Notes: generated from the letters alone by a model not told the origin. A stretch of DNA of 32,000 nt from Dickeya solani IPO 2222 (GCF_001644705.1 NZ_CP015137.1:4230001-4262000), one strand, 5' to 3'; numbered from the stretch's first letter, positions 747 to 27,352 are shown. A program made the numbers and translations.

Positions 747-762
747 CAGCAGGAGATAAACA

Positions 763-2448
763 ATGAAAACGCTGCTGATACTTGATAAATCACTGGGACT
801 GGCGAAAAGCCGTCTGGTGAAAAATTTGCTCGGTGCTGCTGCAGCTAACGCAGGACTTATCCTCACTGAGCAGTTTGCCGATGCGGAGCTGGCCATCGTG
901 CTGGGTGCTCCCGTACAGGCAGACAGTGGTCTGAATGGCAAAAAAGTGTTTGCCGGGGATACAGAACTGGCATTGAGTCAACCGGCGGCGTTTCTGGAAA
1001 AAGCCAAAGCGGAAGCGCAGTCGTATCAGGCGCCGGCCACCGCTGCGGCGGCCCCGGCTACCGCCAAACGCATCGTGGCGGTGACCGCCTGTCCGACTGG
1101 GGTGGCGCACACCTTCATGGCGGCGGAAGCGATTGAAAGCGAAGCGAAAAAGCGCGGCTGGTGGGTGAAGGTCGAAACCCGCGGTTCCGTGGGTGCCGGC
1201 AACCCGATCAGCCCGGAAGACGTCGAGCAGGCGGATCTGGTGATCGTGGCGGCGGACATTGAAGTTGACCTTAGCAAATTTGCTGGCAAAAAGATGTACC
1301 GCACCTCCACCGGTCTGGCGCTGAAGAAGACGGCGCAGGAGTTTGACAAGGCGCTGTCCGAGGCGACGGTGTTCCAGCCGTCCGCCCAGAGCAGTGCGGC
1401 GGCCGGCGGCGAGTCCGCCAGGAAAGGCGGTGCTGGACCATACCGTCACCTGCTGACCGGCGTGTCCTACATGCTGCCGATGGTGGTGGCAGGCGGTCTG
1501 TGTATCGCCCTGTCGTTCGTGTTCGGGATTACGGCATTCAAGGAAGAAGGTACGCTGGCTGCCGCGCTGATGAAGATCGGCGGTGGGTCGGCCTTTGCCC
1601 TGATGGTGCCGGTACTGGCCGGTTATATCGCGTTCTCGATTGCTGACCGTCCGGGCCTGACGCCGGGTCTGGTCGGCGGTATGCTGGCGGTTAGCACCGG
1701 CGCCGGCTTCCTCGGTGGTATCATCGCCGGTTTCCTGGCCGGTTATCTGGCTCGCGCCATCAGCAACCATGTGACGCTGCCGCAGAGCATGTCGGCGCTG
1801 AAACCGATCCTGATTATTCCGCTGGTCGCCACGCTGATCACCGGTTTGATCATGATCTACGTGGTGGGTACGCCGGTAGCGAAAATCCTGACCGGTCTGA
1901 CCGGCTGGCTGCAGTCGATGGGCACGGCCAATGCGGTCATTCTGGGCGCGATTCTGGGCGGTATGATGTGTACCGACATGGGTGGCCCGGTGAACAAAGT
2001 GGCTTACGTGTTCGGTACTACGCTGCTGAGTAGCCAGGTGTATGCGCCGATGGCCGCCGTCATGGCTGCCGGTATGGTGCCGCCGCTGGCGATGGGTCTG
2101 GCGACCTTTATTGCCGGCAAAAAATTCACCGCCAACGAACGTGAAGGCGGCAAGGCGGCGGTGGTGCTGGGTCTGTGCTTCATCTCCGAAGGGGCCATTC
2201 CTTACGCTGCCCGCGACCCGATGCGTGTGCTGCCGTGCTGTATCCTGGGCGGTGCGCTGACCGGCGCGACCTCTATGGCGATTGGCGCGAAGCTGATGGC
2301 GCCGCACGGCGGTCTGTTCGTGCTGCTGATTCCGGGTGCGATTACGCCGGTACTGGGTTATCTGTTCTCCATCATCGCCGGTACGGTAGTGGCTGGCGTG
2401 CTGTATGCCGTGCTGAAACGTCCGGAAGAGCAACTGGCCAAAGCCTGA
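763..2448 (+). CDS. fruA: PTS fructose-specific EIIB'BC component
   Basis: The 561-aa product is collinear with my recollection of E. coli FruA (MKTLLI..., VTACPTGVAHTFMAAEAIE..AKKRGWWVKVETRGSVG, GGPVNK, FISEGAIP..ARDPMRVLP). An AGGAG RBS lies 7 nt upstream. Confidence 0.93.
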   Translation: MKTLLILDKSLGLAKSRLVKNLLGAAAANAGLILTEQFADAELAIVLGAPVQADSGLNGKKVFAGDTELALSQPAAFLEKAKAEAQSYQAPATAAAAPATAKRIVAVTACPTGVAHTFMAAEAIESEAKKRGWWVKVETRGSVGAGNPISPEDVEQADLVIVAADIEVDLSKFAGKKMYRTSTGLALKKTAQEFDKALSEATVFQPSAQSSAAAGGESARKGGAGPYRHLLTGVSYMLPMVVAGGLCIALSFVFGITAFKEEGTLAAALMKIGGGSAFALMVPVLAGYIAFSIADRPGLTPGLVGGMLAVSTGAGFLGGIIAGFLAGYLARAISNHVTLPQSMSALKPILIIPLVATLITGLIMIYVVGTPVAKILTGLTGWLQSMGTANAVILGAILGGMMCTDMGGPVNKVAYVFGTTLLSSQVYAPMAAVMAAGMVPPLAMGLATFIAGKKFTANEREGGKAAVVLGLCFISEGAIPYAARDPMRVLPCCILGGALTGATSMAIGAKLMAPHGGLFVLLIPGAITPVLGYLFSIIAGTVVAGVLYAVLKRPEEQLAKA

Positions 2449-2470
2449 TTGCCGCTGTAACCTGATGACA

Positions 2471-2500
2471 AACGCCAGTCTTGCGACTGGCGTTTTTTTT
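2471..2500 (+). terminator. Rho-independent terminator of the fru operon
   Basis: Perfect 10-bp stem aacgccagtc/gactggcgtt with loop ttgc, followed by a run of T. Confidence 0.75.
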
Positions 2501-2572
2501 ACGTTTTTTTCGCCGAATCGGGTAATAGCGGTATGATTTTGCATTGCTGTGGGGGAAGAGAAGGAGAACCGT

Positions 2573-3283
2573 ATGCCGCGTCACCATGCCAGTCGTGGAA
2601 TTTTGGTGTTGGAATCGCCCTGGGAACTGGATGAGCATGATGCCAACCGCTCATCCGTGGTGCCGTTTATTGAAGGCATCGCCAAAGTTGCCGGTGATAC
2701 CGAGGTGTATTACGCGAATTTCTACGATAAGAAGAGTTTTCGCACCGCACTACATTGCCTGTGCAAGATCCCGTTCAAAAACATCATTATCTATGTCGCC
2801 GCGCACGGTCAGGGAAAAGAGCTTGGCGGTACGCATATCCGGGATGTCCTCGTACCGGTCGGTGAATTGTCCCATCATTTCAATATTACCGGGCTGTTGC
2901 TCGGCGCTTGTTTCGTGGGCGCGCATACCGATCTAATGGAAACGTTTACCAGCGGCAATTATTTGCGCTGGTGCGCCGGATATGCCTCAGAAACCGAATG
3001 GCTTACTGGTACGCTGATTGACTGTGCCATCATCAATCAAATGCTATCGCTAAAAAAGAACGCCTTCTCAGATCGCGATACTATTGTCGAGAACCTGGCG
3101 CTGGCGATTTCTCCCTTCCACGATAAATACGCGATTGGGCGTGATACGCACGGCAAGCCGATGCAACTGCGCGATGCCTTTCAATGTGTGGTTCAGCCCA
3201 GTGGGCAAGGGCATAAGCCGCGCACGGTGTCGGACAAGGTCTTCCAGCGAGCGGGGCAATTGAGGCGGCAGGAAGTTGAATAA
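2573..3283 (+). CDS. Hypothetical protein with caspase/CHAT-like His...Cys strand pattern (function unknown)
   Basis: I prefer the ATG at 2573 because AAGGAG sits 6 nt upstream; the GTG at 2549 in the track is probably an extension. The 236-aa product has no signal peptide or TM segment visible. Motifs are NIIIYVAAHGQG and, about 40 aa later, ITGLLLGACFVG. It lies between the fruA terminator and nfo. Confidence 0.6.
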   Translation: MPRHHASRGILVLESPWELDEHDANRSSVVPFIEGIAKVAGDTEVYYANFYDKKSFRTALHCLCKIPFKNIIIYVAAHGQGKELGGTHIRDVLVPVGELSHHFNITGLLLGACFVGAHTDLMETFTSGNYLRWCAGYASETEWLTGTLIDCAIINQMLSLKKNAFSDRDTIVENLALAISPFHDKYAIGRDTHGKPMQLRDAFQCVVQPSGQGHKPRTVSDKVFQRAGQLRRQEVE

Positions 3284-3334
3284 GCGGGCGGCCTAAACGC
3301 GTGCCGCCACGTGAATATTTAGGCGAGTGAGGGG

Positions 3335-4192
3335 TCAGGTGACGCTGGCGGGCGATTGCTGTGACTTCAGCCAGGCGATTTCCTGCGCCCAGATATTCGG
3401 GTTGATGGTTTCCAGAATCAGCGGAATACCGTCAAAGCGCGGGTCGCGCATAATATAGCTGAATACGGTTTTACCGATGTTGCCTTCTCCCAGGCTGTGG
3501 TGACGGTCTACCCGGCTGTTGAATTCGCTTTTGGCGTCATTCAGGTGCATACCGCGCAAATAGCGGAAACCGACTACGCGTTCCAGTTCGGCAAAAGCGA
3601 GCTCGCAATCGGCTTCGGTGCGCAGATCATAACCGCCGGCAAAGGCGTGGCAGGTGTCGATACAGAAGCCGACCCGACTTTTGTCTTCCACCTGATCGAT
3701 GATTTCCGCCAGATGTTCAAAGCGGAACCCCAGATTGCTGCCCTGACCGGCGGTATTTTCAATCACGGCGGTCACGCCGGCGGTGGCGTCCAGCGCCAGG
3801 TTGATAGACCGGGCGATGCGGCTCAGACAGGTACTTTCGTCGATCTGACGCAGGTGACTGCCGGGATGGAAATTCAGCAACGTGAGCCCCAGTTGCTGAC
3901 AGCGCGATATTTCATCGATAAACGCCGCCTGGGATTTCTGTAAGGCGTCGTCGTCCGGGTGCCCCAGATTGATCAGGTAGCTGTCGTGCGGCAGAATTTG
4001 GGCCGGGGTGAACTGATACTGCGCACAGGCGGCCCGGAAACGATCGATGACATCCGCCGCCAACGGCGGGGCCTGCCACTGGCGCTGATTTTTGGTAAAC
4101 AGCGCGAACGCGGTGGCACCGATGTCATGGGCGCGGGCAACCGCCTGATCCACGCCGCCCGAGGCGCTGACGTGGGCTCCGACATATTTCAT
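3335..4192 (-). CDS. nfo: Endonuclease IV
   Basis: From the ATG at 4192 (AGGAG RBS upstream) the product is 285 aa and begins [13 protein letters not shown]...[11 protein letters not shown], matching E. coli Nfo in length and sequence. The track ORF start at 4219 is an upstream extension. Confidence 0.92.
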
Positions 4193-4258
4193 GCTTTTCT
4201 CCTTTTTATACCCGCGCATTATGACATTACCGCTTGGCTGGATGTAGCCTTGTTTCGT

Positions 4259-5341
4259 TCAGGCCAAGAGGTGTTGTACCCCTATATTGATGGCTGCGCC
4301 GCCTGCCACCAGCCAGAGAAACAGGACCGCCGCCAGCAGCAACGGCTTGATGCCGGCCTGTCGTAGCGTGCTCAGGCGCGTGGCCAGCCCCAGCGCCACC
4401 ATCGCCATGGTCAACAGCGCATTATCCAGTTGCGTCAGCATGGCGACCCAACCTGCCGGCAGCCAGTTCAGCGAGTTGACCCCGCACATCAACACAAAAC
4501 CCAGGGCGAACCACGGATAACCGGCGGTGGCGGCCGCGGTAGCCTGATGCGCGGGTTGACGCTGTTTCAGCCACAGACCGAGCAGAAACAGGAACGGCGC
4601 CAGCATCATGACACGCAGCATCTTGCCGATTACCGCCGTATTCTCGGTCACCGGGCCGATAGCGTGGCCGGCGGCCACTACCTGCGCGACTTCATGCACC
4701 GTTGAGCCGAGGTAGAGTCCGAAAGTCTGCGGGGTAAATAACCAGCCGCTATACTGGATAAAATGTTGGTACAGCCACGGGTAAAAAAACATGGCGGTGG
4801 TGCCGAACAGCACCACGGTCGATACCGCCACCGCTACCTTGTCGGCCGAGCTTTTCAGCACCGGCGCGGTGGCCAGCACGGCGGCGGCGCCGCAAATGCT
4901 GCTGCCTGCGCCGATCAGCAATACGGTGTGCCGATCCAGCCGGAACCAGCGCTGTCCCAGCCAGCAGGCGAGCAGCAGAGTAGAGGTGAGCGTCAACAGG
5001 TCGATCACCAGACCGGCGGCGCCGATGGCGGTGATTTGCTGAAAGCTGAGTTTGAAGCCGTACAGGATGATGCCCCAGCGCAGCAGATGATGCCGGGACC
5101 ACTGAACGCCGGCGTCACTCCAGGGTTGCAGATGCGCGTAGACGGTATTGCCCAGCACCATGCCAACCAGTATCGCCAGCGTCAGGGAACCTAGTCCTAA
5201 TCCGGCTATCGTCGGCTGGACGGATAACCATAATACGCCTCGGGTCAGCAGGCCGGTCAGGATGATGCCGATCAGCAGGTGGCCGGCGGCGGACAAAGGG
5301 GAAAAACGTTGTACCCTGGAAGAAAATGAAAACATAGCCAT
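4259..5341 (-). CDS. yeiH: YeiH/UPF0324 family inner-membrane protein
   Basis: Polytopic membrane protein with YeiH-like blocks (LRLGIILYGF.L.FQQI, LIGAGSSICGAAAVLAT, GSTVHEVAQVVAAGHAI, KMLRVMMLAPFL). It is divergent from yeiE as in E. coli. The start is ambiguous: GTG 5347, ATG 5341 or ATG 5335. Confidence 0.85.
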   Translation of the reverse strand: MAMFSFSSRVQRFSPLSAAGHLLIGIILTGLLTRGVLWLSVQPTIAGLGLGSLTLAILVGMVLGNTVYAHLQPWSDAGVQWSRHHLLRWGIILYGFKLSFQQITAIGAAGLVIDLLTLTSTLLLACWLGQRWFRLDRHTVLLIGAGSSICGAAAVLATAPVLKSSADKVAVAVSTVVLFGTTAMFFYPWLYQHFIQYSGWLFTPQTFGLYLGSTVHEVAQVVAAGHAIGPVTENTAVIGKMLRVMMLAPFLFLLGLWLKQRQPAHQATAAATAGYPWFALGFVLMCGVNSLNWLPAGWVAMLTQLDNALLTMAMVALGLATRLSTLRQAGIKPLLLAAVLFLWLVAGGAAINIGVQHLLA

Positions 5342-5448: not shown

Positions 5449-6327
5449 ATGCATATTACGTTACGTCAACTGGAAGTGTTTACCGAAGTCCTGAAAAGTG
5501 GTTCAACGACCCAGGCTTCGGTGGTGTTGTCGCTGTCACAGTCGGCCGTCAGCGCGGCGCTGGCTGATCTTGAAAGTCAGTTGGGGGTGCAACTGTTTGA
5601 CCGCGTCGGCAAACGGCTGGTGGTCAATGAGCACGGTCGCCTGTTGTATCCCAAAGCGCTGGCGCTGCTGGAGCAGTCGGCGGAGATCGAGCAGCTGTTC
5701 CGGCGCGATAATGGCGCGCTGCGGATTTATGCCAGCAGTACCATCGGCAATTATCTGATGCCGGCGATGATTGCCCGCTACCGTCAGGATTTCCCGGCCA
5801 TTCCGCTGGAACTGTACGTGGGCAATACGCTGGATGTGGTGAATGCCGTTTCCGAATTCCGGGTCGATCTGGGACTGATTGAAGGGCCGTGCCACCATCC
5901 CGAACTGATCACCCAGCCCTGGCGGGAAGATGAACTGGTGGTGTTTTGTGCGCCGGGCAATCCGCTGATTGATCATGACTTTACGTTACAGATGCTGGCG
6001 GACGCGCCCTGGATCCTGCGTGAACACGGCTCGGGGACGCGTGAAGTGCTGGACCATCTGTTGCTGGCGCGCCTGCCGCATTTCCGGCTGGTGATGGAGT
6101 TGGGCAACTCGGAGGCGATCAAGCACGCGGTGCGGCACGGCATTGGCATCAGCTGCCTGTCGCGCCATGTGATCGCCGACCAGCTTGCCACCGGCGCGCT
6201 GGTGGAACTGTCGGTTCCTTTGCCGCCGCTGAACCGCACGCTGTATCTGGTGCACCACCGCCAGAAACATTTATCCGGCGTGCTGCAATGTTTTCTGGGG
6301 TATTGTCAGGGCGATGACGGTATCTAA
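5449..6327 (+). CDS. yeiE: LysR-family transcriptional regulator YeiE
   Basis: The 292-aa product has an N-terminal wHTH ([42 protein letters not shown]). Position and orientation between yeiH and lysP are as in E. coli. Confidence 0.85.
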
Positions 6328-6490
6328 ACAGACTGGCAACACTGGCGTAACGAACGGGGCATCAATCCAGAGGAGTTTCTTATGATGCCGGCTGAGTTAT
6401 GAAGGTCTCTTATAATCCGCGCTGTGCGCTATTCAGCGGGTAGCGGATTGCCTACAATCCGCCCTCAAATTTTCAAGGGCATGAATTGTA

Positions 6491-7963
6491 ATGGCTCAAC
6501 ATGAAACTCACTCCGCCGAACAGCGGGGAACCACACTGCGCCGTGAGCTGAAAGCGCGGCATTTGACGATGATCGCCATTGGCGGTTCGATCGGCACCGG
6601 GTTGTTTGTCGCTTCCGGCGCGACGGTGTCGCAAGCCGGGCCCGGCGGTGCGATGCTGTCTTATGCGCTGATCGGCCTGATGGTTTATTTCCTGATGACC
6701 AGTCTTGGCGAACTGGCGGCATTCATGCCGGTTTCCGGTTCGTTTTCCACCTATGGCGCGCGCTATGTGGAAGAAGGGTTCGGCTTCGCGCTGGGCTGGA
6801 ACTACTGGTACAACTGGGCGGTGACCATCGCGGTCGACCTGGTGGCGGCGCAACTGGTGATGGGATATTGGTTCCCGTCGGCGCCCGGCTGGGTGTGGAG
6901 CGCGCTGTTCCTGTCGCTGATGTTTTTGCTGAACTACATCTCCGTCAAAGGGTTTGGCGAAGCGGAATACTGGTTCTCGCTGATTAAGGTCACCACCGTC
7001 ATCCTGTTTATCGCGGTCGGGCTGCTGATGATGATCGGCATTGTGCGCGGGGGCGAACACGCGGGCTGGCATAACTGGCAGATTGGCGATGCGCCGTTCG
7101 CCGGCGGCTTTTCCGCCATGATCGGCGTGGCGATGATTGTCGGTTTCTCGTTCCAGGGCACCGAACTGATCGGCGTGGCGGCGGGGGAATCAAAAGACCC
7201 GCAGACCAATATTCCGCGCGCGGTTCGCCAGGTGTTCTGGCGTATTCTGCTGTTCTATATTTTCGCCATCCTGATCATCAGCCTGCTGGTCCCTTACACC
7301 GACCCGAACCTGCTGCGCAATGATGTGAAAGATATCAGCGTTAGTCCGTTCACGCTGGTGTTCGAGAACGCCGGCCTGCTGTCGGCGGCGGCGGTGATGA
7401 ATGCGGTGATCCTGACCGCGGTGCTGTCGGCGGGTAATTCCGGCATGTACGCGTCCACCCGCATGCTGTTTACGCTGGCGCGGGAAGGTAAGGCACCGGC
7501 CTGTTTCGGCAAACTGTCGAAAGGCGGGGTGCCGCGCAACGCGCTGTACGCTACCACGGTGGTCGCGGGCCTGTGCTTTCTGTCGTCGATGTTCGGCAAC
7601 CAGACGGTGTACCTGTGGCTGCTGAATACCTCCGGTATGACCGGGTTCATCGCCTGGCTGGGGATTGCCATCAGCCACTACCGTTTCCGCCGCGGTTACG
7701 TCATGCAGGGACTTGACCTGAACGCGTTACCGTACCGTTCCGGTTTCTTCCCGCTGGGGCCGATCTTTGCTTTCGTGCTGTGCCTGATTATTACGCTGGG
7801 CCAGAACTATCAGGCGTTTTTGGCTGACAAGATCGACTGGTACGCGGTGACGGCGACTTACATCGGCATTCCGCTGTTTCTGGTGATCTGGCTTGGTTTC
7901 CGGTTAGTAAAAGGTTCGCGGATGGTGAAATACCGCGACATGACCTTCCCGCAACACCAGTAA
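6491..7963 (+). CDS. lysP: Lysine-specific permease (APC family)
   Basis: The 490-aa product contains LKARHLTMIAIGGSIGTGLFVASG and has 12-TM APC architecture. Length and synteny match E. coli LysP. Confidence 0.92.
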   Translation: MAQHETHSAEQRGTTLRRELKARHLTMIAIGGSIGTGLFVASGATVSQAGPGGAMLSYALIGLMVYFLMTSLGELAAFMPVSGSFSTYGARYVEEGFGFALGWNYWYNWAVTIAVDLVAAQLVMGYWFPSAPGWVWSALFLSLMFLLNYISVKGFGEAEYWFSLIKVTTVILFIAVGLLMMIGIVRGGEHAGWHNWQIGDAPFAGGFSAMIGVAMIVGFSFQGTELIGVAAGESKDPQTNIPRAVRQVFWRILLFYIFAILIISLLVPYTDPNLLRNDVKDISVSPFTLVFENAGLLSAAAVMNAVILTAVLSAGNSGMYASTRMLFTLAREGKAPACFGKLSKGGVPRNALYATTVVAGLCFLSSMFGNQTVYLWLLNTSGMTGFIAWLGIAISHYRFRRGYVMQGLDLNALPYRSGFFPLGPIFAFVLCLIITLGQNYQAFLADKIDWYAVTATYIGIPLFLVIWLGFRLVKGSRMVKYRDMTFPQHQ

Positions 7964-7977
7964 CCGTTGCGTAAAGC

Positions 7978-8010
7978 AAAAAAGCCAGCCGTATTGCGGC
8001 TGGCTTTTTT
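7978..8010. terminator. Bidirectional rho-independent terminator (lysP / sotB)
   Basis: The sequence aaaaaagccagccg-tattg-cggctggctttttt has an A-run and a T-run flanking a GC stem. It lies between convergent genes. Confidence 0.75.
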
Positions 8011-8045
8011 ATGGGCGAAAGAGATGGCGTTCAAACGCGACAGAC

Positions 8046-9233
8046 TTAAACCCGAGACTGCACCAGTCGCACGCTGCGGTAGACGCTGAGCAGGGTGGCG
8101 AACAGCGCCACCAGCACCAGCGGCGCACCGACATAACCGATTTTGTCCATCCCCAGATGCAGGCTGACCTGACTGCCCAGCAGCGCGCCGCCGCCGATGC
8201 CGAGATTGAACAACCCGGAGAAAATCGACATGGCGACATCGCTGGCGTCAGGCGCCAGCGACAGCACTTTGGCCTGCATCGCCAGCCCGATGGACATCAT
8301 CGCCAGCCCCCATACCAGACAGAGCAGCGTCAGGCCGAACGGATAACCGGACAGCGGCATCAGCAGCGCCAGACAGGCCAGCAACAGCAACATGGCGGTC
8401 ACCAGAAAGCCGATCGGGAAGCGTTCGCTGTAACGGCTGTAGAGCATACTGCCCACGATCCCGGCGCAGCCGAACAACAGCAAAATCAAGGTGGTGAAGT
8501 TTTCCGGCAAACCGGCGACCGTCTGGATAAACGGTTCGATATAGCTGTAAGCGGTGAAATGCGCGGTCACCACCACCACGGTCAGCAGGTAGAGGCCGAC
8601 CAGCGCCGGGCGGCGGAACAGTTTCGGCACGCTGGACAGCGAACCAGAATGCTCGCTGGGCAGCAACGGCAGCAAGCGCGCCAGCAGGATCATGGCGATC
8701 GTGGCGCCGGCGGCGATGGTCAGCAGGGTCACACGCCAACCGAGATACTGGCCAATTACCCGACCCAGCGGCAGCCCCAGCACCATCGCCAGCGACGACC
8801 CGGTGGCGATCAACCCCAACGCCTGCGCGCGTTTGCCGGGCGGCGCCATGCGAATCGCCAGCGAGGCGGTAATCGACCAGAATACCGAGTGCGCCAGCGC
8901 CACCCCGGCGCGGGAAATGACCAGTACGGTAAAGTTCCAGGCGACGGCAGACAGCAGGTGGCTGACGATAAACAGGCTGAACAGGCCAATCAGCAATTTA
9001 CGACGCTCAATGCCGCTGGTCAGCAACATGCAGATCAGCGAGGCCACCGCCACGATCCAGGCATAAATCGTAATCATCAGACCGACGTCTTCGGTTTTCA
9101 TGGCAAAGGAGTTGGCGATGTCGCTCAACAGCCCCACCGGAATAAATTCCGTGGTGTTGAAAATAAACGCGGCGATAGCCAATGTGACCACGCGCAGCCA
9201 GGCGGTGGCGCGCGAGGATGATGCGGATGTCAT
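8046..9233 (-). CDS. sotB: MFS sugar efflux transporter SotB/YdeA
   Basis: The 395-aa product is collinear with remembered E. coli YdeA/SotB ([67 protein letters not shown]). Confidence 0.88.
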
Positions 9234-9804
9234 AACAGGATCCTGAACGGGTGTGACGGCGCTCTATTGTAGCCAATTGCGAGTGAAAATGCGATGACGC
9301 TCACATTTCAGCCAGGAGACGCCGCGCCTGAATTGTGGAGCGGCGCGCTGCTTTCGACGAACGTTTGGCGTCCCCGATGGCAGGCACAGTTGCGAAGACT
9401 GCCATCAGCAGGCGTTTCGCCGCGTTCGCTGTCGCGATTCATTGTGTGATACCGGCTAATATTATTGTAGATAGAATTATGCCGCCAAAATAATTGATGT
9501 TCAAAATTATGCGGCAGAATGAATATTATTAGTTCGTTGTATTTTTAAATAAGCCACATAAAGAAATATTATTTGTGTCTTTTGGTGATTGGTTATTATG
9601 GCATAGCGAAAATATTATTTATGAATATCCTTTGGGTGCGAATCTATGACACTTTTTTTACGCTTTTTATTTTCAAGCTGAATGCCGTGGATTTTACTTT
9701 TGGCAAGGGTTATAGCTTAAAATTAGCAATCTTTTCATTTATTTTATGATTTTATGACTATTTATTTATGACTGACCATAGAAAAAGAAATTGGTGTGCC
9801 TAAG

Positions 9805-9820
9805 AATTACCCTGGTAATT
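9805..9820. promoter_or_regulatory. Candidate operator dyad in the AT-rich leader of the tetronate-like cassette
   Basis: Perfect 7-bp inverted repeat AATTACC-CT-GGTAATT, about 130 nt upstream of the first cassette gene. No regulator is assigned. Confidence 0.25.
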
Positions 9821-9946
9821 ATTGTATTTTATAGAGCGGTAAAGTACATAATGTGAAATAGGTTTTTATAATGATGCGTGAAATTGCAGTTGCAAAAGAA
9901 AAGCAGGTGTGAGAGCTTTATCACAAGCTTCGATGAGGGAACAGCA

Positions 9947-10972
9947 ATGAGCGTATATATTAATGCGGTGGAAACCTATTTGCCTGGTCCAGTTATTAGT
10001 AATCAGGAATTGGGGAATAAAATCGGATTTAAACCTGAGTTAATTAAAAAGCTTTTCGGGAATACCGGCCGGCATTTTGCCGTTAATATGAATACCGGTA
10101 AACCTATCGCGTCGTCAGCAGAATTAATTACCATAGTAATCAAGAAACTTCTCTCCAGCGCCTGCATAAATAAAGAACGCATCGATTTTATTATCGTAGC
10201 GTCCGCCACGCCGGATACGCTCTTGCCAAGCAGTGTCAATCAGGCGTGTCATGCTATGGAGTTTCGGCAGATTGAAACCTACCAGATTGTTTCGGGGTGT
10301 TCTGGCGCGGTGCAGGCGATCAAGCTAGCTCGCGAGCTGGTGGCGGCACCGGATAATGGCCTGGACAACGGCCTGGTCATCGGGGTTGATACCGCCTATA
10401 AATTCCTGGATATCTTTGATGAACATGCCAGTAAGAAAGAAACGAAGGAACTGGTGAATTATACGCTGTTTGGCGACGGTGTCGGCGGATGCCTGATTTC
10501 CAATCAGCCCTCAGCATCCAGTATTGAGATTGAACATATTTCTTTTAAATATCTGGGCGTTGATGAAGCGGTTGGGCAATTGGCTAATTGGCGTGGCTCC
10601 CGTAATGATATTGATTATGGCGCTTTGCTGAATGAAGAATATAAATTGATTGAAAAACTGGTTCCGGTTATTACCCAGGATGCAATCAATGCATTGACGG
10701 ATAAATTAGGCGGGCGTCCGGACTGGCTGCTGCCGCCGCAACTTTCCGGTTCGATGCTGGAGAAAATTTTATCCGATATCGGTTATACGGTAGATGAAAT
10801 ATTCAGTATGGTGGATAAAATCGGTAATACTGCCAATGCCGCGCTGTTTTTTCAGATAAAAGAATTCAGCGATATCTCCCTTGCCAATGAAAGTGCCATT
10901 GGTATTTCTGTTGAGTCGTCGCGTTGGCTGGCGGGCGGTCTGATTCTAAGAAACAGGAAAGGCCTTTTATAA
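9947..10972 (+). CDS. KAS III (FabH)-like enzyme, putative tetronate-forming condensing enzyme/acyltransferase
   Basis: The ATG at 9947 has a GAGGGA RBS; the GTG at 9878 in the track is an extension. The 341-aa product has FabH-like blocks: IIVASATPD, active-site-like VSGCSGAVQAI, LFGDGVGG, DWLLPPQLS (FabH has DWLVPHQAN) and IGNTANAAL (FabH has HGNTSAAS). Confidence 0.85.
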   Translation: MSVYINAVETYLPGPVISNQELGNKIGFKPELIKKLFGNTGRHFAVNMNTGKPIASSAELITIVIKKLLSSACINKERIDFIIVASATPDTLLPSSVNQACHAMEFRQIETYQIVSGCSGAVQAIKLARELVAAPDNGLDNGLVIGVDTAYKFLDIFDEHASKKETKELVNYTLFGDGVGGCLISNQPSASSIEIEHISFKYLGVDEAVGQLANWRGSRNDIDYGALLNEEYKLIEKLVPVITQDAINALTDKLGGRPDWLLPPQLSGSMLEKILSDIGYTVDEIFSMVDKIGNTANAALFFQIKEFSDISLANESAIGISVESSRWLAGGLILRNRKGLL

Positions 10973-10996
10973 CATCATGTAAAAAGGACTTTTATC

Positions 10997-11279
10997 TATA
11001 CCCGTCATACTTCGAGTTGCAGGGCAACCGACAGACGTGTTGCGCAACGCAATGCGTTTGCTTTTCAGGGCAAGGCTCGTTATGAGCCTTGTAACGCGAC
11101 AATAGCGTGAATCCTTAGGTGGTTATATCAGTAAATGACTGGGGGAACGTCAACACGACCGCGGCCGTAAACCCTGTGGAATGAAATCTACTGTAGCCCA
11201 AAGAGAAAAGGCCCGTAGGTGCATCGATGGACCGAGTCGTGAAGCGGATACGCCTGCAACCTGAAATCTGATAGGGATA
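10997..11279. repeat. Enlarged ERIC/IRU (enterobacterial repetitive intergenic consensus) element
   Basis: The termini tatacccgtcatacttcgagttgcagg ... cctgcaacctgaaatctgatagggata and the core gtgaatccttaggtggttatatcagtaaatgactggggga match the remembered ERIC consensus, including the ERIC1R/ERIC2 primer regions. At about 283 bp versus the canonical ~127 bp, it implies internal insertions. Confidence 0.65.
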
Positions 11280-11297
11280 AAGAGAATAAGGACATTT

Positions 11298-13046
11298 ATG
11301 AAACAGGATAATGCATTAAGTCGGATCGCCGCCTCGAAAAAAATCACGGCGGAAGGAAAGTGCATCGTTAATATAGCCACGTTCAGTAATTTCAATCATA
11401 AAGCATTGAATGACCTGATTGCGTTCAACCTGAATGACCTGGGCTGTTATCCATCCTTTTATGACGGTATTTACAGCGACTATTTTCCCCACGTTTTGGG
11501 TAGTGCCGCCGACATCAAGACGTTCGGGGCGCAGTTTCATTTTTATGTCCTTGATTCCTCCTTTATCGAAAACGATATTGGTTCGCTGCTGCCGGCGGAT
11601 GATATCCGCGAAAATATCCAGGAGCACAAAAGTCGGCTGGCGTATCTGCTGAATTTTTCCGCTACCGGCTGTGATGCCCGCATTGTGCTGAACACCGTCC
11701 ATATCGCTGAATCACAGCTCAAACAGATTATCGCGCAGGATCAGCGGGCGGCGTTGAAGCAGCTGATCGGCGAGTTCAACGCGTATCTTGTGGCGTTGGG
11801 GCAGACGGAAGATCGCGTGACGGTGGTCGATCTGCAGGAGATCGGCGGGACAGTGGAGGATGCTGCCACCCGCCGAACGGCGCAGTTATTAGGGCTGGGC
11901 GTTGGCCTGGATGCGCTGGACGTCATTGCGCGCGTCGGCGTTGCCGCTATCCGGCAAGTTCTGGGGAAAACGCTGAAATGCGTGGTCAGCGATCTGGATA
12001 ACACGTTGTGGAAGGGCATTTTGGCGGACGACGGCGTCGACGGCATCCTGATGGCGGATAAACATATCGGCACGGGGCACCTGCGCTATCAGGAGTATCT
12101 GCGCAATCTGTACGATCAGGGCATCATTCTGGCCATTTGTAGCAAAAACAATCTGGAGAATGTGGAGGAGGCGTTTAAACGCCGCGCCGACGAGATGCGC
12201 ATTTCACTGGACAAGTTTTCCGTGGTCAGCGCCAACTGGCAGGGGAAAAGCGGCAACATCCTGAACATCGCCAACGAATTGAACATCTCCCCGGAACACA
12301 TGCTTTTTATTGACGACTCGGCGTTCGAATGCGCGGAAGTCAAGGCCCGCATTCCGGCAATCACCGTGCTGGAATTTTCCGGCGACGTGGCGGAGAACCT
12401 CGCCACGCTGATCGCCGCCGACTATTTCCTGCGTCCGACCCTCAGCAGCGATGACCGCATGCGCAACCTGAGCTATGCGCAGAATAAACTCCGCACGGAG
12501 CTGCAAAAAGATTTTGCGGATGACCACGCCTTTCTGGCCAGTCTGGGTATGACGCTGACTATCCTGCCGGTGGATTCGTCCACGCTGGATCGCGTATCGC
12601 AACTGACGCTGCGCACCAACCAGTTCAATATGACGACGCAACGGATGACCACGCAGGACGTGGCCGGCTACCTCGCGCGGGAAGGGCATCTGGCGGTTAC
12701 GCTGGCGTGCCGCGACCGAATCGGCGACTACGGCGCCATTGGTGCGATATTCCTGCGTTTCGACGGCGATGGCTGTCACATCGATAATTTCATCATGAGC
12801 TGCCGTATCTTCGGGCGTCAGGTCGAGTTCGCGGCGATGCGCTGGCTGTTCGGCTTGTGCCGGACACGGGGTGTCGACCGGATTACCGCCGCGTACGGCC
12901 CGACCGAAAAAAATAGAAAATTCCAGCGTTTTTATCCGGATTGCGGGTTCACCGAAACCGCAAGCAATGTGTTCACCGTTATCGACCCGGCGCCCGCGTC
13001 GCTGGCCGAAAACAGTCATACCGTCACTGTCAAAGAAGGGGAATGA
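11298..13046 (+). CDS. FkbH-like HAD-IIIC protein, putative glyceryl-S-ACP synthase
   Basis: The 582-aa product has HAD motif I VVSDLDNTLWKG, motif II AICSKNN, WQGKSGNI and motif IV MLFIDDSAFE. The C-terminal segment is FkbH-typical (NFIMSCRIFGRQVE). The N-terminal flavodoxin-like region (IVNIATFSNF) is typical of the family. An AAGGA RBS is present. Confidence 0.85.
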   Translation: MKQDNALSRIAASKKITAEGKCIVNIATFSNFNHKALNDLIAFNLNDLGCYPSFYDGIYSDYFPHVLGSAADIKTFGAQFHFYVLDSSFIENDIGSLLPADDIRENIQEHKSRLAYLLNFSATGCDARIVLNTVHIAESQLKQIIAQDQRAALKQLIGEFNAYLVALGQTEDRVTVVDLQEIGGTVEDAATRRTAQLLGLGVGLDALDVIARVGVAAIRQVLGKTLKCVVSDLDNTLWKGILADDGVDGILMADKHIGTGHLRYQEYLRNLYDQGIILAICSKNNLENVEEAFKRRADEMRISLDKFSVVSANWQGKSGNILNIANELNISPEHMLFIDDSAFECAEVKARIPAITVLEFSGDVAENLATLIAADYFLRPTLSSDDRMRNLSYAQNKLRTELQKDFADDHAFLASLGMTLTILPVDSSTLDRVSQLTLRTNQFNMTTQRMTTQDVAGYLAREGHLAVTLACRDRIGDYGAIGAIFLRFDGDGCHIDNFIMSCRIFGRQVEFAAMRWLFGLCRTRGVDRITAAYGPTEKNRKFQRFYPDCGFTETASNVFTVIDPAPASLAENSHTVTVKEGE

Positions 13047-13288
13047 CCATGAAACTGGACGATTTTATCGGCTTGATCAATACCAAAACCGGCATGGCGC
13101 TGGCGACCGAACAGGCGCAGGAGGATTTGACCAACCTTCCGGAGTGGGACTCGTTGACCTTCGTCTATCTGTTGATGGAAATCGAAAAACAGCAGAACAT
13201 CAAAATCGATGTCGAGCAGGTATTGCAGTGCACCACGCTGAATGACATTTACAGGGTCGTGAGCCATGAAGTTACTGAAAGTTTCTAG
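13043..13288 (+). CDS. Acyl carrier protein
   Basis: The product is 79-81 aa, starting at ATG 13043 (which overlaps the upstream TGA) or at ATG 13049 (better spaced from GAAGGGGA). The phosphopantetheine-site motif is LPEWDSLTFVYLLMEIE. The ORF-track frame 12941..13288 is the same frame with a spurious N-terminal extension. Confidence 0.8.
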   Translation: MTMKLDDFIGLINTKTGMALATEQAQEDLTNLPEWDSLTFVYLLMEIEKQQNIKIDVEQVLQCTTLNDIYRVVSHEVTESF

Positions 13289-14012
13289 GGAAAGGCGCCA
13301 GACGCTCTCTTTTCTAGCGATATCCAGGGGCATTCCGGCCATTACCGTCATGCGAGAGATCGATGTCTCGCGCATTGTGGCGGGCGGGCTGCAGCGCAGC
13401 ATGACGGCGATTACCATCAAGGCGATCAGCGAGGCGCTGCGTCAGTTCCCGCAACTGAACGCGATGATCAAATTCGGCAGCGCCAGCACGCTGATTTGCC
13501 CGGATAACATCAGTACCCGGGTGACGCTGGAAAAGGCGCTGAACGGCGTGTCCGGGGTGTATTCACGGGTGATCAGAAATACGGATCGGCTGTCTGTCGC
13601 CGATATCGAACGGGCGCTGCAGCAGTTCAAGCAGGAGGATGTGGCTACCAGCGAACATTACAAGAAAATTCGCTTTATTCAGCGTTTGCCGCCGTTACTG
13701 GCCGCCCTGCTGCTGCGGCTGGCGATGCTATCGCCGACGCTGCAGGCGGAAACCTGGGGTAGCTTCACCGTGACATCGCTGGGGAAAAACAGCCCCGACG
13801 CCTGTATTCCCCTATCCGGTTCCACGTTCACGTTTACGCTGGGGATGATTAACGAAAAGTTGTCGCGAAACTTGAATGACGTGGCGATGTCGCAGGTGGC
13901 GAATCTGTCGATGATTTTCGACCACCGTGTGCTGGACGGCCGGCTGGCGTCAGAATTTCTGGCGCAGATAAAAAGCAACATGGAAGGCTTTGCACTGGAG
14001 TCATCATCATGA
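13266..14012 (+). CDS. Stand-alone 2-oxoacid dehydrogenase E2-type acyltransferase (catalytic domain only)
   Basis: The 248-aa product has the catalytic signature MIFDHRVLDGRLASEFL (DHRxxDG) and an N-terminal ...IPAITVMREIDVS block typical of PF00198-type domains. It has no lipoyl or E3-binding domain. Its start overlaps the ACP gene by 23 nt. Confidence 0.8.
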   Translation: MKLLKVSRERRQTLSFLAISRGIPAITVMREIDVSRIVAGGLQRSMTAITIKAISEALRQFPQLNAMIKFGSASTLICPDNISTRVTLEKALNGVSGVYSRVIRNTDRLSVADIERALQQFKQEDVATSEHYKKIRFIQRLPPLLAALLLRLAMLSPTLQAETWGSFTVTSLGKNSPDACIPLSGSTFTFTLGMINEKLSRNLNDVAMSQVANLSMIFDHRVLDGRLASEFLAQIKSNMEGFALESSS

Positions 14013-15082
14013 TGCTTGATGAACTCAAGAATTTTGTGCTGCTGCACAGCAATGTGCTGAATGTCGGCGCGGAAACCCGCGCCATCCTGCCGGATATTCA
14101 TCATCTGGGCGACGATTTGCCGCATAGCTGGAGCCAGGTGTTTTACCGTCAGGCGCAGTACCATGAAAATCAAGGCGAATTGCTCAAGGCGTGTTCGCTT
14201 TACAATCTGGCGCGTTTTCCCTATCCGGAAACGCCGCTCCAGCATGAGTGCAACCGGCATTGTCAGCGCTTGTTCCGCCAGCAGTATATCGAGAGCGGCA
14301 CGGTGACGAGGGTCAGTCTGTCGCAGGGGCGCCAAGTGTGTTACGTCAGAAAAAAGAACACCGGCAACGTCGTCATTATTAATGGGGGCATCATCTCGCT
14401 GAAAGAGCAGTGGGTGAATCTGGTGGGGCTGTTCGAACGTTTCGACGTTACCGTGGTGTTGACGGAAATGCCGGGGGTGGGGGAAAACCAACTGCCCTAC
14501 AACGAACAATCCTACCGCATGTACAGCGATGTGCTGGATTATCTCGCACAGGATCGCTCCGACATTCGGTGCCATATTTTCGGCCTGAGCTTCAGTGGGT
14601 TTATCGCGTACAAGAACAGCCTGAACGATAGCCGCATCGTGGGCATCACCATGGCGGGCACGCCGCTGGATTCGCTGTACCACGATCGGGATGTCTATCG
14701 GCGGCTGCCTTACGTTACACGGCTGGTTATCGGGCATAATGTGGGGAAAACGCATCCGGAACTGGATGACGACGACAAGGTATTTCGTTACCTCGATGCC
14801 ACGTTCGTGATGCGCCAGGAGGATACCAACCATAGCGTCAGGCTGTATTACGTTCAGAGCCTGCGCGACGAGGTGATCCCTAACGTCGAAGCGGACGCGA
14901 TCCGCCGTTTGTCCCGGCAGCACCATATTCTGTCGCTGGATGACGTGCATGGGTCGCCCGGGTACGGCAAAACCGTGCGGGTTTATTTGCTGTGGTCGTT
15001 GTTGGATTCGTTGCGCCTGCCGCGGGTCCTGCTCGGCGTCGCCAGGCTGGGGTTTCGCGTCTTGCGGCGTCTGAAGCGATAG
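14009..15082 (+). CDS. Alpha/beta-hydrolase fold protein (FrsA/DUF1100-like)
   Basis: The 357-aa product has the nucleophile elbow GLSFSG (GxSxG) after a beta-strand (IRCHIFGLSFSG), with later D and H candidates (LRDEVIP, DDVHGSPG). It has an ATGA start/stop overlap with the upstream gene. Confidence 0.75.
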   Translation: MMLDELKNFVLLHSNVLNVGAETRAILPDIHHLGDDLPHSWSQVFYRQAQYHENQGELLKACSLYNLARFPYPETPLQHECNRHCQRLFRQQYIESGTVTRVSLSQGRQVCYVRKKNTGNVVIINGGIISLKEQWVNLVGLFERFDVTVVLTEMPGVGENQLPYNEQSYRMYSDVLDYLAQDRSDIRCHIFGLSFSGFIAYKNSLNDSRIVGITMAGTPLDSLYHDRDVYRRLPYVTRLVIGHNVGKTHPELDDDDKVFRYLDATFVMRQEDTNHSVRLYYVQSLRDEVIPNVEADAIRRLSRQHHILSLDDVHGSPGYGKTVRVYLLWSLLDSLRLPRVLLGVARLGFRVLRRLKR

Positions 15083-15178
15083 CGGCGTTTCGCTATGAGT
15101 CGGGTGCCGGCGCGGTGGCAATCGACGCACCGCGCACAGCCCTTTAGTCTGTATACCGTTTAGGCCTTTTGTCAGTTT

Positions 15179-15207
15179 GGGGCGGCAATACCGGCCCCAT
15201 TTTTTTA
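15179..15207 (+). terminator. Probable rho-independent terminator closing the cassette
   Basis: GC-rich hairpin ggggcgg-caatac-cggcccc (imperfect) followed by attttttta, about 100 nt after the hydrolase stop. Confidence 0.5.
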
Positions 15208-15257
15208 TGTGCCGCGTCGTCTCGTCGGTCGGCGTGAGGGAGACGTTTCGGCAGGCG

Positions 15258-16253
15258 TCAGCGTTTCTGGAAGTAGGTCATCGCCAGCGCCAGCGCCAGC
15301 ACCAGCCCTTTGATGATATCCATAGCGTAATAAGGCACGGACAGCATCACCAGCCCGTTTTGCAACACGCCGAGGATCACCGCACCGACCAACGTTCCCA
15401 GCGCATTGGGTTTGCCGGAGCCGGCCAGCGAAAAACCAATATAGGCGGCGGCCACCGCGTCCATCAGATAACCACTGCCGGCGTTGACCTGCGAAGAGCC
15501 GATACGCGACGCCAGCAGGATGCCGCCCAGTGCCGCCAGTAGCGACGAAAGCAGGTAAGCCAGCACGCGGTAACGGGCGGTGCGGATGCCGGCCAGCCGC
15601 GCTGCTTCTGGATTACCGCCAATCGCGTACATGCGTCGGCCGTGCTTGGTCAGCGACATATAAAGCTGCACCAGCACCGTCACCACCAGCATGATCACCA
15701 CAATCACCGGCACCTGTCCCAACGTGGCGAACACCTCGGGAATAACGCCTTCCGCCATATCGCCGCTCGGCAGCAGCATATTCTGGGTGATGGAGCCGCC
15801 GTAGCTGTAGGTCATGGCCACACCCTGAATCACGAACAGGCTGGCCAGCGTCGCCAGCATGTCGGGAATCCGCAGCACCACGATCAGAAACGCATTGAAC
15901 AGCCCCACCAGCAGACACAGCGTCAGCGTCAGCGCGATGGCGGCAGTGGCGCCCAAACCGTGCCAGACGAACAGCGAAATCACCAGCGCGTTCGCCAGCG
16001 AGGCGGTCGACCCCACCGACAGGTCGAAGCCGCCTACCGATAGCGAAATGGAAACGGCTATCGCGATCACCGTGACGATGGCGATGGAACGCAGGATATT
16101 GATGATGTTGTTCGGATCGAGGAAATTGTCCGATGCCAGCCCGAACAGGACGATCAGCGCGACGACGGTAATCAGCATCCCCCATTTGTAGAACAGGTCA
16201 AACAGGCGGTGATGAAAGGGCAGCGCCCCGTTGGATGCAAGTGGCTGACTCAC
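15258..16253 (-). CDS. Sugar-type (CUT2, RbsC-like) ABC transporter permease
   Basis: The preferred start is GTG 16253, which overlaps the ATPase stop (GTGA) and has GGAGGA 7 nt upstream. The 331-aa product has about 9-10 TM segments and the typical block NILRSIAIVTVIAIAVSISLSVGGFDLSVGS. The Arg-rich N-terminal extension in the track ORF is spurious. Confidence 0.85.
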   Translation of the reverse strand: MSQPLASNGALPFHHRLFDLFYKWGMLITVVALIVLFGLASDNFLDPNNIINILRSIAIVTVIAIAVSISLSVGGFDLSVGSTASLANALVISLFVWHGLGATAAIALTLTLCLLVGLFNAFLIVVLRIPDMLATLASLFVIQGVAMTYSYGGSITQNMLLPSGDMAEGVIPEVFATLGQVPVIVVIMLVVTVLVQLYMSLTKHGRRMYAIGGNPEAARLAGIRTARYRVLAYLLSSLLAALGGILLASRIGSSQVNAGSGYLMDAVAAAYIGFSLAGSGKPNALGTLVGAVILGVLQNGLVMLSVPYYAMDIIKGLVLALALAMTYFQKR

Positions 16254-17761
16254 GCGGGAGTTCCTCCGGTTGAATAAAATAACAACGTCTCTTCGTCGGC
16301 GTCGGCGCCGTCCAGTTCGGCGACGATACGCCCGTCCCACAGCACGCAGATTCGGTCGCACAGGCCCACCAGTTCGGAGAATTCGCCGGAGGCGTAAATT
16401 ACGCCTTTACCCTGCTGCGCCAGTGAATCGATCAGGGTAAACAGATCCTGTTTGGCTTTGATATCCACGCCTTTGGTGGGCTCATCCAGAATCAGTACCT
16501 GTACGTCGCTGCGCAGCCATTTGCCAATCGCCACCTTTTGCTGGTTACCGCCGGACAGACGGCGTAAACGCTGTTGCGGCCCGCTGGTACGGATGGTCAG
16601 CCGCTGGATCAGGGAGCGGGCCCAGGCCAGCGCCTGACCGTGCCCGAAAACGCCGTAGCGGGAAAAGCTGTCGCTGGCGCTGATGCTGAGGTTCATGGTG
16701 ACGGATTCGTCAATAAAAATGCCCTCTTTGCGCCGCTCTTCCGGCACCAGTGCAATACCCTGTCGTACCGCATCGGCCGGCGAGGTGGGACGCCAGGGCT
16801 GACCCTGATAGCGCCCGGACTCGATGCGGCTGCGGGCGGCGCCGAACAGCGCCTTGCACAGCTCGGTCTTGCCGGCGCCGGCGAGACCGGCGATGCCAAG
16901 AATCTCGCCCTGACGTAGCCGGAGCGAAATGTTGTGCAGCAGGGTGTCGTCATGCAGGCCATCTACCTGCAACAGGGTGTCATTGTCGCGGCGTGGGCGG
17001 CGCGGCGGGAAAATATCATCCAGCCGGTGGCCCAGCATCCGCTCGACAATTTCCCCGCCGCTCAGCCCTTGCATCGGGCCGCTGCTGACAAATTGCCCGT
17101 CGCGCAGCACGGTCAGCGTGTCGCAGATGGCTTTCAGCTCGTGGATACGGTGCGAAATGAAGACGACGCCGATACCGTCCTGCTGCAGACGGCGCACGAC
17201 GGCGAACAGCCGGGCGCTTTCTTCCTGATCGAGCGGGGCGGTGGGTTCGTCGAGAATCAGAAATCGGCAGCGATGGGAGAGCGCGCGCGCCAGCAGGATT
17301 TGCTGTTTTTCCGCCAGCGAGCACCGTTCCAGCCGCTGGCGAACATTGATGCTGACCCCCAGTTGCGCCAGCAGCGCCTGCGCCCGCTGATAGAGCGCCG
17401 GCCAGTTGAGTACGTGGCCGCTTTCCGCCAGTTGATCCAGCATGATGTTTTCCGCCACCGACAGCGTAGGCACCAGCGCGGCGTCCACTTCCTGTTGCAC
17501 CAGATGAATACCGTGGCGTTTGGCGTCTCGGGGAGAATGAATCGCAACTTTTTCGCCATCCAGCAGGATATCTCCGCTGTAATGGTCATAAGATCCGGAA
17601 AGAATCGCCATCAGCGTGGATTTTCCCGCGCCGTTGGCGCCGGTCAACGCGTGGATGGTTCCGCCTTCCAGCGTGAAATTCACCTGTCTGAGCGCTGGGA
17701 ATCCGGCAAAAGAGATGGAAATGTAGCGCATTTCCAGACGCGAACGCGGGTTTATGGACAT
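16250..17761 (-). CDS. Sugar-type ABC transporter ATP-binding protein (duplicated ATPase, RbsA/MglA-like)
   Basis: There are two NBDs: Walker A GANGAGKST and GLAGAGKTE, signature LSGGNQQKV, and Walker B LILDEPT (twice). The first ATG is at 17761; the track start at 17773 is a TTG. Confidence 0.88.
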   Translation of the reverse strand: MSINPRSRLEMRYISISFAGFPALRQVNFTLEGGTIHALTGANGAGKSTLMAILSGSYDHYSGDILLDGEKVAIHSPRDAKRHGIHLVQQEVDAALVPTLSVAENIMLDQLAESGHVLNWPALYQRAQALLAQLGVSINVRQRLERCSLAEKQQILLARALSHRCRFLILDEPTAPLDQEESARLFAVVRRLQQDGIGVVFISHRIHELKAICDTLTVLRDGQFVSSGPMQGLSGGEIVERMLGHRLDDIFPPRRPRRDNDTLLQVDGLHDDTLLHNISLRLRQGEILGIAGLAGAGKTELCKALFGAARSRIESGRYQGQPWRPTSPADAVRQGIALVPEERRKEGIFIDESVTMNLSISASDSFSRYGVFGHGQALAWARSLIQRLTIRTSGPQQRLRRLSGGNQQKVAIGKWLRSDVQVLILDEPTKGVDIKAKQDLFTLIDSLAQQGKGVIYASGEFSELVGLCDRICVLWDGRIVAELDGADADEETLLFYSTGGTPA

Positions 17762-17978
17762 AATTGACAACAACTGGTTCTTAACAGCGATAATGACGGG
17801 AGCCCGACGTTGAAAAATATCATATTAACCGCAGAATGGAATGCCTGAATGGGTTTCTGGGTGGCTCGGGAAAGAAATGAAAAAGCATAACTTAAGCAAA
17901 AACGTTATTAAGATCGGCGCCGGTTATCCTTAACTATGGTTTTTCCGCGCAGAGCTCCAGATTAAACAGAACATTATC

Positions 17979-23290: not shown

Positions 23291-23376
23291 GCTTCATCCA
23301 TCTTTGCGCCATCGCATTTTGCTGCGCTGTGGATAAGGCATTATTCAAATCAGACACACATTATCTGGATATCATG

Positions 23377-25002: not shown

Positions 25003-25060
25003 GATTAATTGCCGTGTCGTGAACGACGCGGCTTCTTTTTCACCGAACGCATCATAAAAG

Positions 25061-27324: not shown

Positions 27325-27352
27325 CAGGCTTCTGGTTCTCTCGTTTTAGCTC

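Follow-up and report, generated by a model that had tools for sequence, protein, structure and literature searches.

The agglomerin biosynthetic cluster was characterized in 2013 from the strain known as 'Pantoea agglomerans PB-6042' (Kanchanabanca et al., HF565364.1; cited in PMC11350110 and PMC4979870). In such systems an FkbH-like protein uses 1,3-bisphosphoglycerate to generate a glyceryl-S-acyl carrier protein (ACP), and a FabH-like enzyme joins this to a 3-oxoacyl thioester to give the tetronate ring; Agg4 then acetylates the 5-hydroxymethyl group and Agg5 eliminates acetate to leave the exo-methylene, as established by knock-out, complementation and in vitro reconstitution (PMC4979870; PMC7489565; PMC9324945). 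The present analysis concerns a five-gene cassette on the plus strand, positions 9947-15082, of a 32,000-nucleotide (nt) stretch of the Dickeya solani IPO 2222 chromosome, the whole of which is referred to as the window and in which all coordinates are given. With a probability that we put at about 0.9, this cassette is the D. solani orthologue of the agg1-agg5 agglomerin operon and would provide a self-contained route, free of any polyketide synthase (PKS), to 3-acyl-5-methylidene-tetronates.

The agg1-agg5 operon (HF565364.1) shares with the D. solani locus the five-gene order, the lack of a PKS and a flanking gene of the major facilitator superfamily (MFS), the product of which is 92% identical to CCP37719.1, named as a 'sugar efflux transporter' of Pantoea agglomerans in the agg deposit; it differs in its host label and by the divergence, about 10% at the protein level, of the D. 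solani enzymes. The RK-682 pathway of Streptomyces (RkC, RkD, RkE, and RkF) is similar by description, in that an FkbH-like protein, an ACP and a FabH-like enzyme yield a simple 3-acyl-tetronate with a chain of the fatty-acyl type, but the 5-hydroxymethyl group is retained in RK-682; Agg4 and Agg5 are reported to accept this compound as a substrate and to convert it to a novel agglomerin derivative (PMC4979870). Also related are AbyA1-AbyA5 of the abyssomicin pathway and the operons for spirotetronates and polyether tetronates (e.g., Mad7, 8, 16, 17, and 18; PMC7489565), which have the same five functions, usually in the same order, and the same catalytic residues. However, these lie inside large type I PKS clusters which supply the 3-oxoacyl chain, whereas the Dickeya cassette stands alone, and the identity to them is only 24-37%.

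A survey published in 2024 found homologues of the agglomerin cluster in 181 strains, 178 of them Dickeya and two Musicola, and in no other Pantoea (PMC11350110). As D. solani strains are among those listed, the preliminary description of this stretch, which had supposed that the locus might be undescribed in soft-rot Pectobacteriaceae, was mistaken on this point: the locus is already known, its presence in D. solani has been tabulated, and it is neither a new metabolite cluster nor a new kind of system.

Orthology with the agglomerin operon

The deposited agglomerin proteins were reached through the clusters, formed at 90% identity, to which the D. chrysanthemi proteins belong; these gave CCP37722.1, CCP37723.1, CCP37724.1, and CCP37719.1 under the names "Pantoea agglomerans" or "Enterobacter agglomerans"; by name and organism, these are taken to be part of the HF565364 agg record. 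The gene 2 product is 89% identical to CCP37722.1 ('Glyceryl-ACP synthase') across 582 of 582 residues without a gap, that of gene 3 is 91% identical to CCP37723.1 ('Acyl-carrier protein'), and that of gene 4 shows 89% identity with CCP37724.1 ('Acetyl-CoA dependent acetyltransferase related to the catalytic domain of the E2...'). Agg1 and Agg5 as deposited did not appear among the 15 members listed of their large clusters. This gap is filled by a published comparison, as it spans the whole record: D. solani CFBP5647, RNS 05.1.2A, and IFB0421 align with the 8,009 bp of HF565364.1 with a query cover of 97%, and 88.3-88.6% of the aligned nucleotides are identical (PMC11350110, supplement).

The preliminary description had read five co-directional genes in this interval, and all five open reading frames (ORFs) are present on the plus strand. 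The motifs that it quoted (VSGCSGA, VVSDLDNTLW, AICSKNN, FIDDS, MSCRIFGR, EWDSL, FDHRVLDG, and GLSFSG) all occur in the translations, and its calls of a FabH-like enzyme, an FkbH protein, an ACP, an E2-type protein and an alpha/beta-hydrolase were borne out by profile searches above curated cut-offs. Its agglomerin-type interpretation agrees with the identities given above and with the gene order, and the product class that it predicted is that of the agg pathway (PMC4979870); the closest company of both the FkbH-like and the E2-like protein is among tetronate enzymes, and not among homologues from polysaccharide or lipid modification. It had also noted the lack of a PKS or nonribosomal peptide synthetase (NRPS), which holds for the window since no ORF in the 32 kb exceeds 584 amino acids (aa). 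Only the statement that the genes are tightly packed needs to be restricted: genes 2-5 abut or overlap (a spacing of 2 nt, then overlaps of 23 nt and 4 nt), but 325 nt lie between genes 1 and 2.

Conserved residues were counted in aligned homologues from 80 species-representative genome loci plus four further loci. The 80 loci came from a profile scan of genome contigs with an Agg5 alignment and were used solely for gene order and residue conservation; they do not form a complete census, because the scan missed Dickeya, Musicola, and Brenneria, all of which carry the cassette.

Gene 1 is the agg1 orthologue, a FabH-like enzyme with the fold of 3-oxoacyl-ACP synthase III (KAS III) which is predicted to form the tetronate ring from glyceryl-S-ACP and a 3-oxoacyl thioester. 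In the profile search it matched PF08545 (ACP_syn_III) at 30.2 bits (cut-off 24), and it scored far below the cut-offs of models for true FabH (NF006829, 88 bits against 249; TIGR00747, 81 bits against 292). The product matches PDB 5by7, an entry known here by its deposited name alone, over its full length (E 4.2e-46), whereas genuine FabH structures were matched only at E 1e-10 to 6e-16. Cys118 and Asn294 are invariant in the Agg1 family, and the position of the catalytic His of FabH is taken by Pro264 in all 72 of the 72 cassette-linked homologues, the surrounding motif being LPPQLS in the window Agg1 and VPHQAN in FabH. At the level of sequence, the Cys/Pro/Asn pattern is a clean signature dividing the predicted tetronate-forming enzymes from true KAS III, and in our own interpretation the replacement of His by Pro fits a non-decarboxylative condensation. 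A role as the FabH of primary metabolism was rejected, given the scores below cut-off and the lack of a Cys-His-Asn triad. The same Pro signature is carried by PDB 5by7.

Gene 2, the agg2 orthologue, is predicted to encode a glyceryl-S-ACP synthase of the FkbH type, in which a HAD-IIIC phosphatase domain is followed by a transfer domain at the C terminus, and scores 291.5 bits with TIGR01686 (FkbH; cut-off 146.65). All 55 of the homologues compared share residues D232, D234, T236, S282-K283-N284, D339-D340, and C502, the last within the SCR motif. The Cys of the AICSKNN motif is not conserved, its place being taken by Val in 33 of the 55. Directly 3' of this gene is gene 3, the agg3 orthologue, a dedicated ACP and the predicted carrier of the glyceryl unit, with a PF00550 (PP-binding) score of 30.2 bits (cut-off 20.8) and the DSL motif for attachment of phosphopantetheine.

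Gene 4 is the agg4 orthologue, a predicted acetyl-CoA-dependent O-acetyltransferase with no domain other than the catalytic one of 2-oxoacid dehydrogenase E2 proteins (PF00198, 66.7 bits, cut-off 23). Its structure matches are restricted to catalytic domains of E2 subunits, and of the DHRxxDG motif D219-H220-R221 is found in 77/77 homologues and D224-G225 in 76/77. A genuine 2-oxoacid dehydrogenase E2 was rejected, the product being 248 aa long with PF00198 only and no lipoyl or subunit-binding domains; the best score with an E2 equivalog model was 45.5 bits, against a cut-off of 378.65. Gene 5 is the agg5 orthologue, an enzyme of the alpha/beta-hydrolase fold predicted to eliminate acetate and so create the 5-methylidene group. 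It passes an FrsA-like alpha/beta-hydrolase model (22.4 bits, cut-off 22), and residues 4-333 match the acetate-eliminating abyssomicin enzyme AbyA5 (PDB 4ywf and 5no5; E 2.9e-43). S194, D287, and H314 are invariant in all 84 of the homologues compared.

The order FabH-like, FkbH, ACP, E2-like, and hydrolase is common to the window, D. chrysanthemi, Brenneria uluponensis, and Photorhabdus sp. APURE. Identity to the window proteins declines along this series, from D. chrysanthemi (Agg1 93%, Agg2 89%, Agg3 91%, Agg4 90%, and Agg5 93%) through B. uluponensis (69, 58, 65, 64, and 62%, in the same order) to Photorhabdus (51, 37, 38, 43, and 39%). Between D. solani and D. chrysanthemi the ratio of nonsynonymous to synonymous substitution rates (dN/dS) is 0.06-0.16 for all five genes; purifying selection acts on the cassette, and its genes are intact. 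In 52 of the 80 scanned loci the five genes are collinear on one strand; these are mostly actinomycete, including Streptomyces abyssomicinicus and Actinomadura kijaniata, and agree with the conserved five-gene operon for glycerate utilization described in the literature (PMC7489565).

The chemistry of each step is taken from the literature on orthologous systems. Agg2 would take a glyceryl unit from 1,3-bisphosphoglycerate, dephosphorylate it and load it onto the ACP, Agg3. Agg1, in which the acyl-accepting Cys and the Asn are kept and Pro replaces the decarboxylation His, would then combine glyceryl-S-Agg3 with a 3-oxoacyl thioester, and by forming one C-C and one C-O bond would give a 3-acyl-5-hydroxymethyl-tetronate. 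The primary alcohol would be O-acetylated by Agg4 with acetyl-CoA, and elimination of acetate by Agg5 would produce the exocyclic methylene. As the window holds no PKS or NRPS, the acyl chain probably comes from primary fatty-acid metabolism. We infer that D. solani expresses the operon and produces agglomerins, as well as the chain lengths that it would use.

Layout of the cassette and its surroundings

The coordinates of the cassette and of the elements next to it are collected in Table 1. The ORF of gene 1 opens at a GTG at 9878, but the start at 9947 has a GAGGG Shine-Dalgarno motif upstream, and the product from it matches annotated D. solani proteins exactly and has the same length as the Agg1 orthologues of Brenneria and Photorhabdus. 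Identical Agg1-, Agg2-, and Agg5-like proteins are encoded on 41-43 D. solani contigs. Antisense ORFs at 13679-15130 and 12204-13019 (both minus strand) and small ORFs at 11150-11395 (minus) and 9573-9749 (plus) were rejected as genes, none of them having a Pfam match.

Table 1. Positions of the agg-like genes and adjoining features in the D. solani window.
Feature	Position	Strand	Remarks
MFS transporter, sugar-efflux type	8046-9233	-	divergent from the cassette; NF002921 608 bits (cut-off 401)
Divergent intergenic region	9234-9946		39% GC; presumed promoter/regulatory region
Gene 1 (agg1-like)	9947-10972	+	341-aa form from ATG 9947
Repeat-like insertion	10990-11286		between agg1 and agg2; ~297 nt
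Gene 2 (agg2-like)	11298-13046	+	
Gene 3 (agg3-like)	13049-13288	+	79-aa form, length equal to deposited Agg3
Gene 4 (agg4-like)	13266-14012	+	248 aa
Gene 5 (agg5-like)	14009-15082	+	
Terminator-like hairpin	15178-15206	+	GC-rich stem and U7; ~95 nt past the agg5 stop, in the convergent intergenic region

Much of the gap between agg1 and agg2 is occupied by a repeat-like insertion, present in a single copy in the window, the terminal inverted-repeat arms of which (10990-11023 and 11253-11286) are 34 nt long, imperfect and 71% complementary. It may be similar to enterobacterial repetitive intergenic consensus (ERIC) sequences or to miniature inverted-repeat transposable elements (MITEs), an assignment that we make provisionally, but a search of 5,426 Escherichia coli genomes gave only three partial matches of 73% identity, near bsmA. 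D. chrysanthemi has the insertion as well, but in Brenneria the two genes are separated by 30 nt only and in Photorhabdus they overlap.

The operon is probably transcribed from the divergent intergenic region and ends at the hairpin downstream of agg5, although the signals for this are weak. Several pairs of sigma-70-like hexamers lie on the plus strand between 9500 and 9750, with only 12 found against 7.2 expected. The hairpin has an 8-bp stem and a folding energy of -13 kcal/mol, its z-score against shuffled sequences is not significant, and it was missed by a scan for consensus terminators on account of a bulge. Nothing in Rfam matched positions 9000-15400 at E <= 1, and so there was no known riboswitch or small RNA for the upstream region or the agg1-agg2 gap, and the small ORFs in the upstream region have no Pfam match.

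Base composition is uneven along the locus. Within a window of 56% GC, agg1 (45.4%) and agg3 (47.9%) are low, as is the upstream region, whilst agg2, agg4, and agg5 are at 55-56% and the MFS gene is at 61.5%; the D. chrysanthemi cassette has the same mosaic. This suggests an old horizontal acquisition followed by uneven amelioration.

The flanks are made up of ordinary chromosomal genes. Upstream are nfo, yeiH, yeiE, an amino-acid permease and the sugar-efflux-type MFS transporter, the last being a conserved neighbour which has the same position in D. chrysanthemi and Brenneria, and which may have a role in tetronate export. Downstream are a sugar ABC transporter, an oxidoreductase of the Fe-ADH type, and frmB/frmA-type genes encoding S-formylglutathione hydrolase and class III alcohol dehydrogenase, followed by a LysR regulator and three chemoreceptor genes. 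The sugar-type ABC permease and ATPase (15258-17773, minus strand) are convergent to agg5, with no gene for a periplasmic binding protein adjacent to them among the annotated ORFs; the pair is found in D. solani and D. chrysanthemi but is absent at that position in Brenneria, where the cassette is directly followed by a gene for a KTSC-domain protein and by frmB-like and frmA-like genes. The three chemotaxis genes (23329-29481) are tandem and co-directional and encode methyl-accepting proteins of 557, 569, and 551 aa (TarH and MCPsignal domains); AT-rich spacers between them account for a periodic dip in GC over this interval.

The cassette has the same chromosomal position in D. chrysanthemi and in B. 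uluponensis, where it stands, as called by Pfam domains, between the MFS gene and frmA/frmB genes, and is located elsewhere in Photorhabdus sp. APURE. Besides those of B. uluponensis and Photorhabdus sp. APURE, stand-alone cassettes in other Enterobacterales were found in P. viridis, Enterobacter asburiae TN152, Proteus myxofaciens, Rouxiella, and Phaseolibacter. In most of these loci the set of five is complete and has the same order; the exceptions are two Rouxiella loci without an ACP match by tblastn and the Proteus locus, where the contig stops within the last gene. They differ from the Dickeya cassette in lacking the agg1-agg2 insertion and in identity (Brenneria 58-69%, the others 30-53%). 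To our knowledge, no product of any of them is known. In Photorhabdus sp. APURE the cassette (98-4605 of that locus) is about 1.5 kb from luxC, luxD, and two luciferase-subunit domains, a luxCDAB-like set at 6137-10907, with two small unannotated ORFs in between. LuxD is a fatty-acyl-ACP thioesterase, and a tetronate cassette and a lux set would both draw on the fatty-acyl pool.

Alternative interpretations

Some points weigh against the assignment of the cassette to agglomerin biosynthesis. The orthology of Agg1 and Agg5 depends on D. chrysanthemi proteins as proxies and on the published blastn of the whole cluster, and sequence does not tell whether the acyl chain is supplied as an ACP or a CoA thioester, nor how long it is. 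In the searchable literature neither metabolite nor expression data were found for the D. solani cassette, nor agglomerin production by any named Dickeya, and the locus was absent from the D. solani secondary-metabolite papers found. Finally, the insertion stands between agg1 and agg2, where it might influence their co-transcription, but this carries less weight because it is also present in D. chrysanthemi, in which other proteins of the cluster are 99% identical to those of the producer.

From the lack of production data, together with the insertion of 297 nt inside the operon and an upstream region so much lower in GC than the window, it might be argued that the cassette is silent or decaying in D. 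solani, its genes being kept without any tetronate being made, for example because the insertion or the upstream DNA blocks expression; AT-rich DNA such as this is typical of xenogeneically silenced regions. However, five intact ORFs with invariant catalytic residues and low dN/dS values, and the occurrence of identical proteins on so many D. solani contigs, are not what would be expected of a remnant, and D. chrysanthemi shares the insertion while its Agg2-Agg4 have about 99% identity with the proteins of the strain that yielded the agglomerins. We therefore regard a silent or decaying cassette as improbable. The chance is far slighter still, to the point of being negligible, that the FkbH-like protein and the ACP instead make a hydroxymalonyl- or methoxymalonyl-ACP extender unit for a PKS encoded elsewhere. 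Such a function is brought to mind by the names of some members of the NCBI/UniRef clusters ('methoxymalonyl-ACP biosynthesis protein FkbH') and by the trans-acyltransferase PKS clusters found elsewhere in D. solani (PMC9765074), but the two dehydrogenases and the O-methyltransferase that define the extender pathway (FkbG, H, I, J, and K; PMC7489565) are absent from the cassette and its flanks. The genes are linked instead to tetronate-specific FabH-like, Agg4, and Agg5 partners, and the 89% identity of gene 2 is to the glyceryl-ACP synthase of a characterized tetronate pathway. With MFS and sugar ABC transporters adjoining the cassette and none of the required partners, the methoxymalonyl-ACP interpretation is effectively refuted.

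A different question is whether an active pathway yields mainly a diffusible signal or a factor in plant interaction, or congeners other than agglomerins A-D. In Nostoc, related exo-methylene lactones serve as mediators that depend on cell density (PMC9324945), agglomerins are only moderately active, mainly against anaerobes (PMC11350110), and a protein divergence of about 10% from the deposited enzymes could shift the preference for acyl chains. On the other hand, the biological role is not addressed by sequence and the cassette has no receptor or regulator gene, and this possibility is at present a doubtful one. The reading of the cassette as an agglomerin operon remains the one that we prefer.

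The agglomerin producer and the possible place of agglomerins in Dickeya

The proteins deposited for PB-6042 are nearly the same as those of D. chrysanthemi (Agg2 99.0%, Agg3 98.7%, and Agg4 99.2% identity), and since the flanking chromosomal gene, encoding the MFS transporter, is also 99.7% identical at the protein level, the classical producer was probably not a Pantoea but a strain similar to D. chrysanthemi. With identities of 99-99.7%, the difference between D. solani and the deposit would be one between two species of Dickeya and not one between Pantoea and Dickeya. The authors of the 2024 survey have stated that the identity of strain PB-6042 is not verifiable (PMC11350110). A D. chrysanthemi-like PB-6042 would answer the puzzle posed by that survey, in which the cluster was missing from all other Pantoea, and if it is true a textbook 'Pantoea antibiotic' moves to Dickeya. 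The remark in the preliminary description that it knew of no characterized tetronate from soft-rot Pectobacteriaceae is then probably mistaken in substance, as agglomerin is most likely one.

At present the five genes are annotated in D. solani as 3-oxoacyl-ACP synthase, HAD-IIIC family phosphatase, acyl carrier protein, 2-oxo acid dehydrogenase subunit E2 and alpha/beta hydrolase, and they can be renamed agg1-agg5 with confidence. D. solani is an emerging potato pathogen which has been studied for oocydin, zeamine, and solanimycin. An acyl-tetronate probably adds a further small antibacterial to these, and no study of such a compound in the species was found. There are, in our estimation, even odds on the wider proposal that agglomerins are Dickeya metabolites, with 'Enterobacter/Pantoea agglomerans PB-6042' a D. 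chrysanthemi-like strain, and that D. solani and about one third of the sequenced Dickeya make acyl-tetronates from fatty-acid intermediates during soft rot, where these compounds may have an unrecognized role in signalling or in competition, for instance with anaerobes where tissue is macerated and poor in oxygen.

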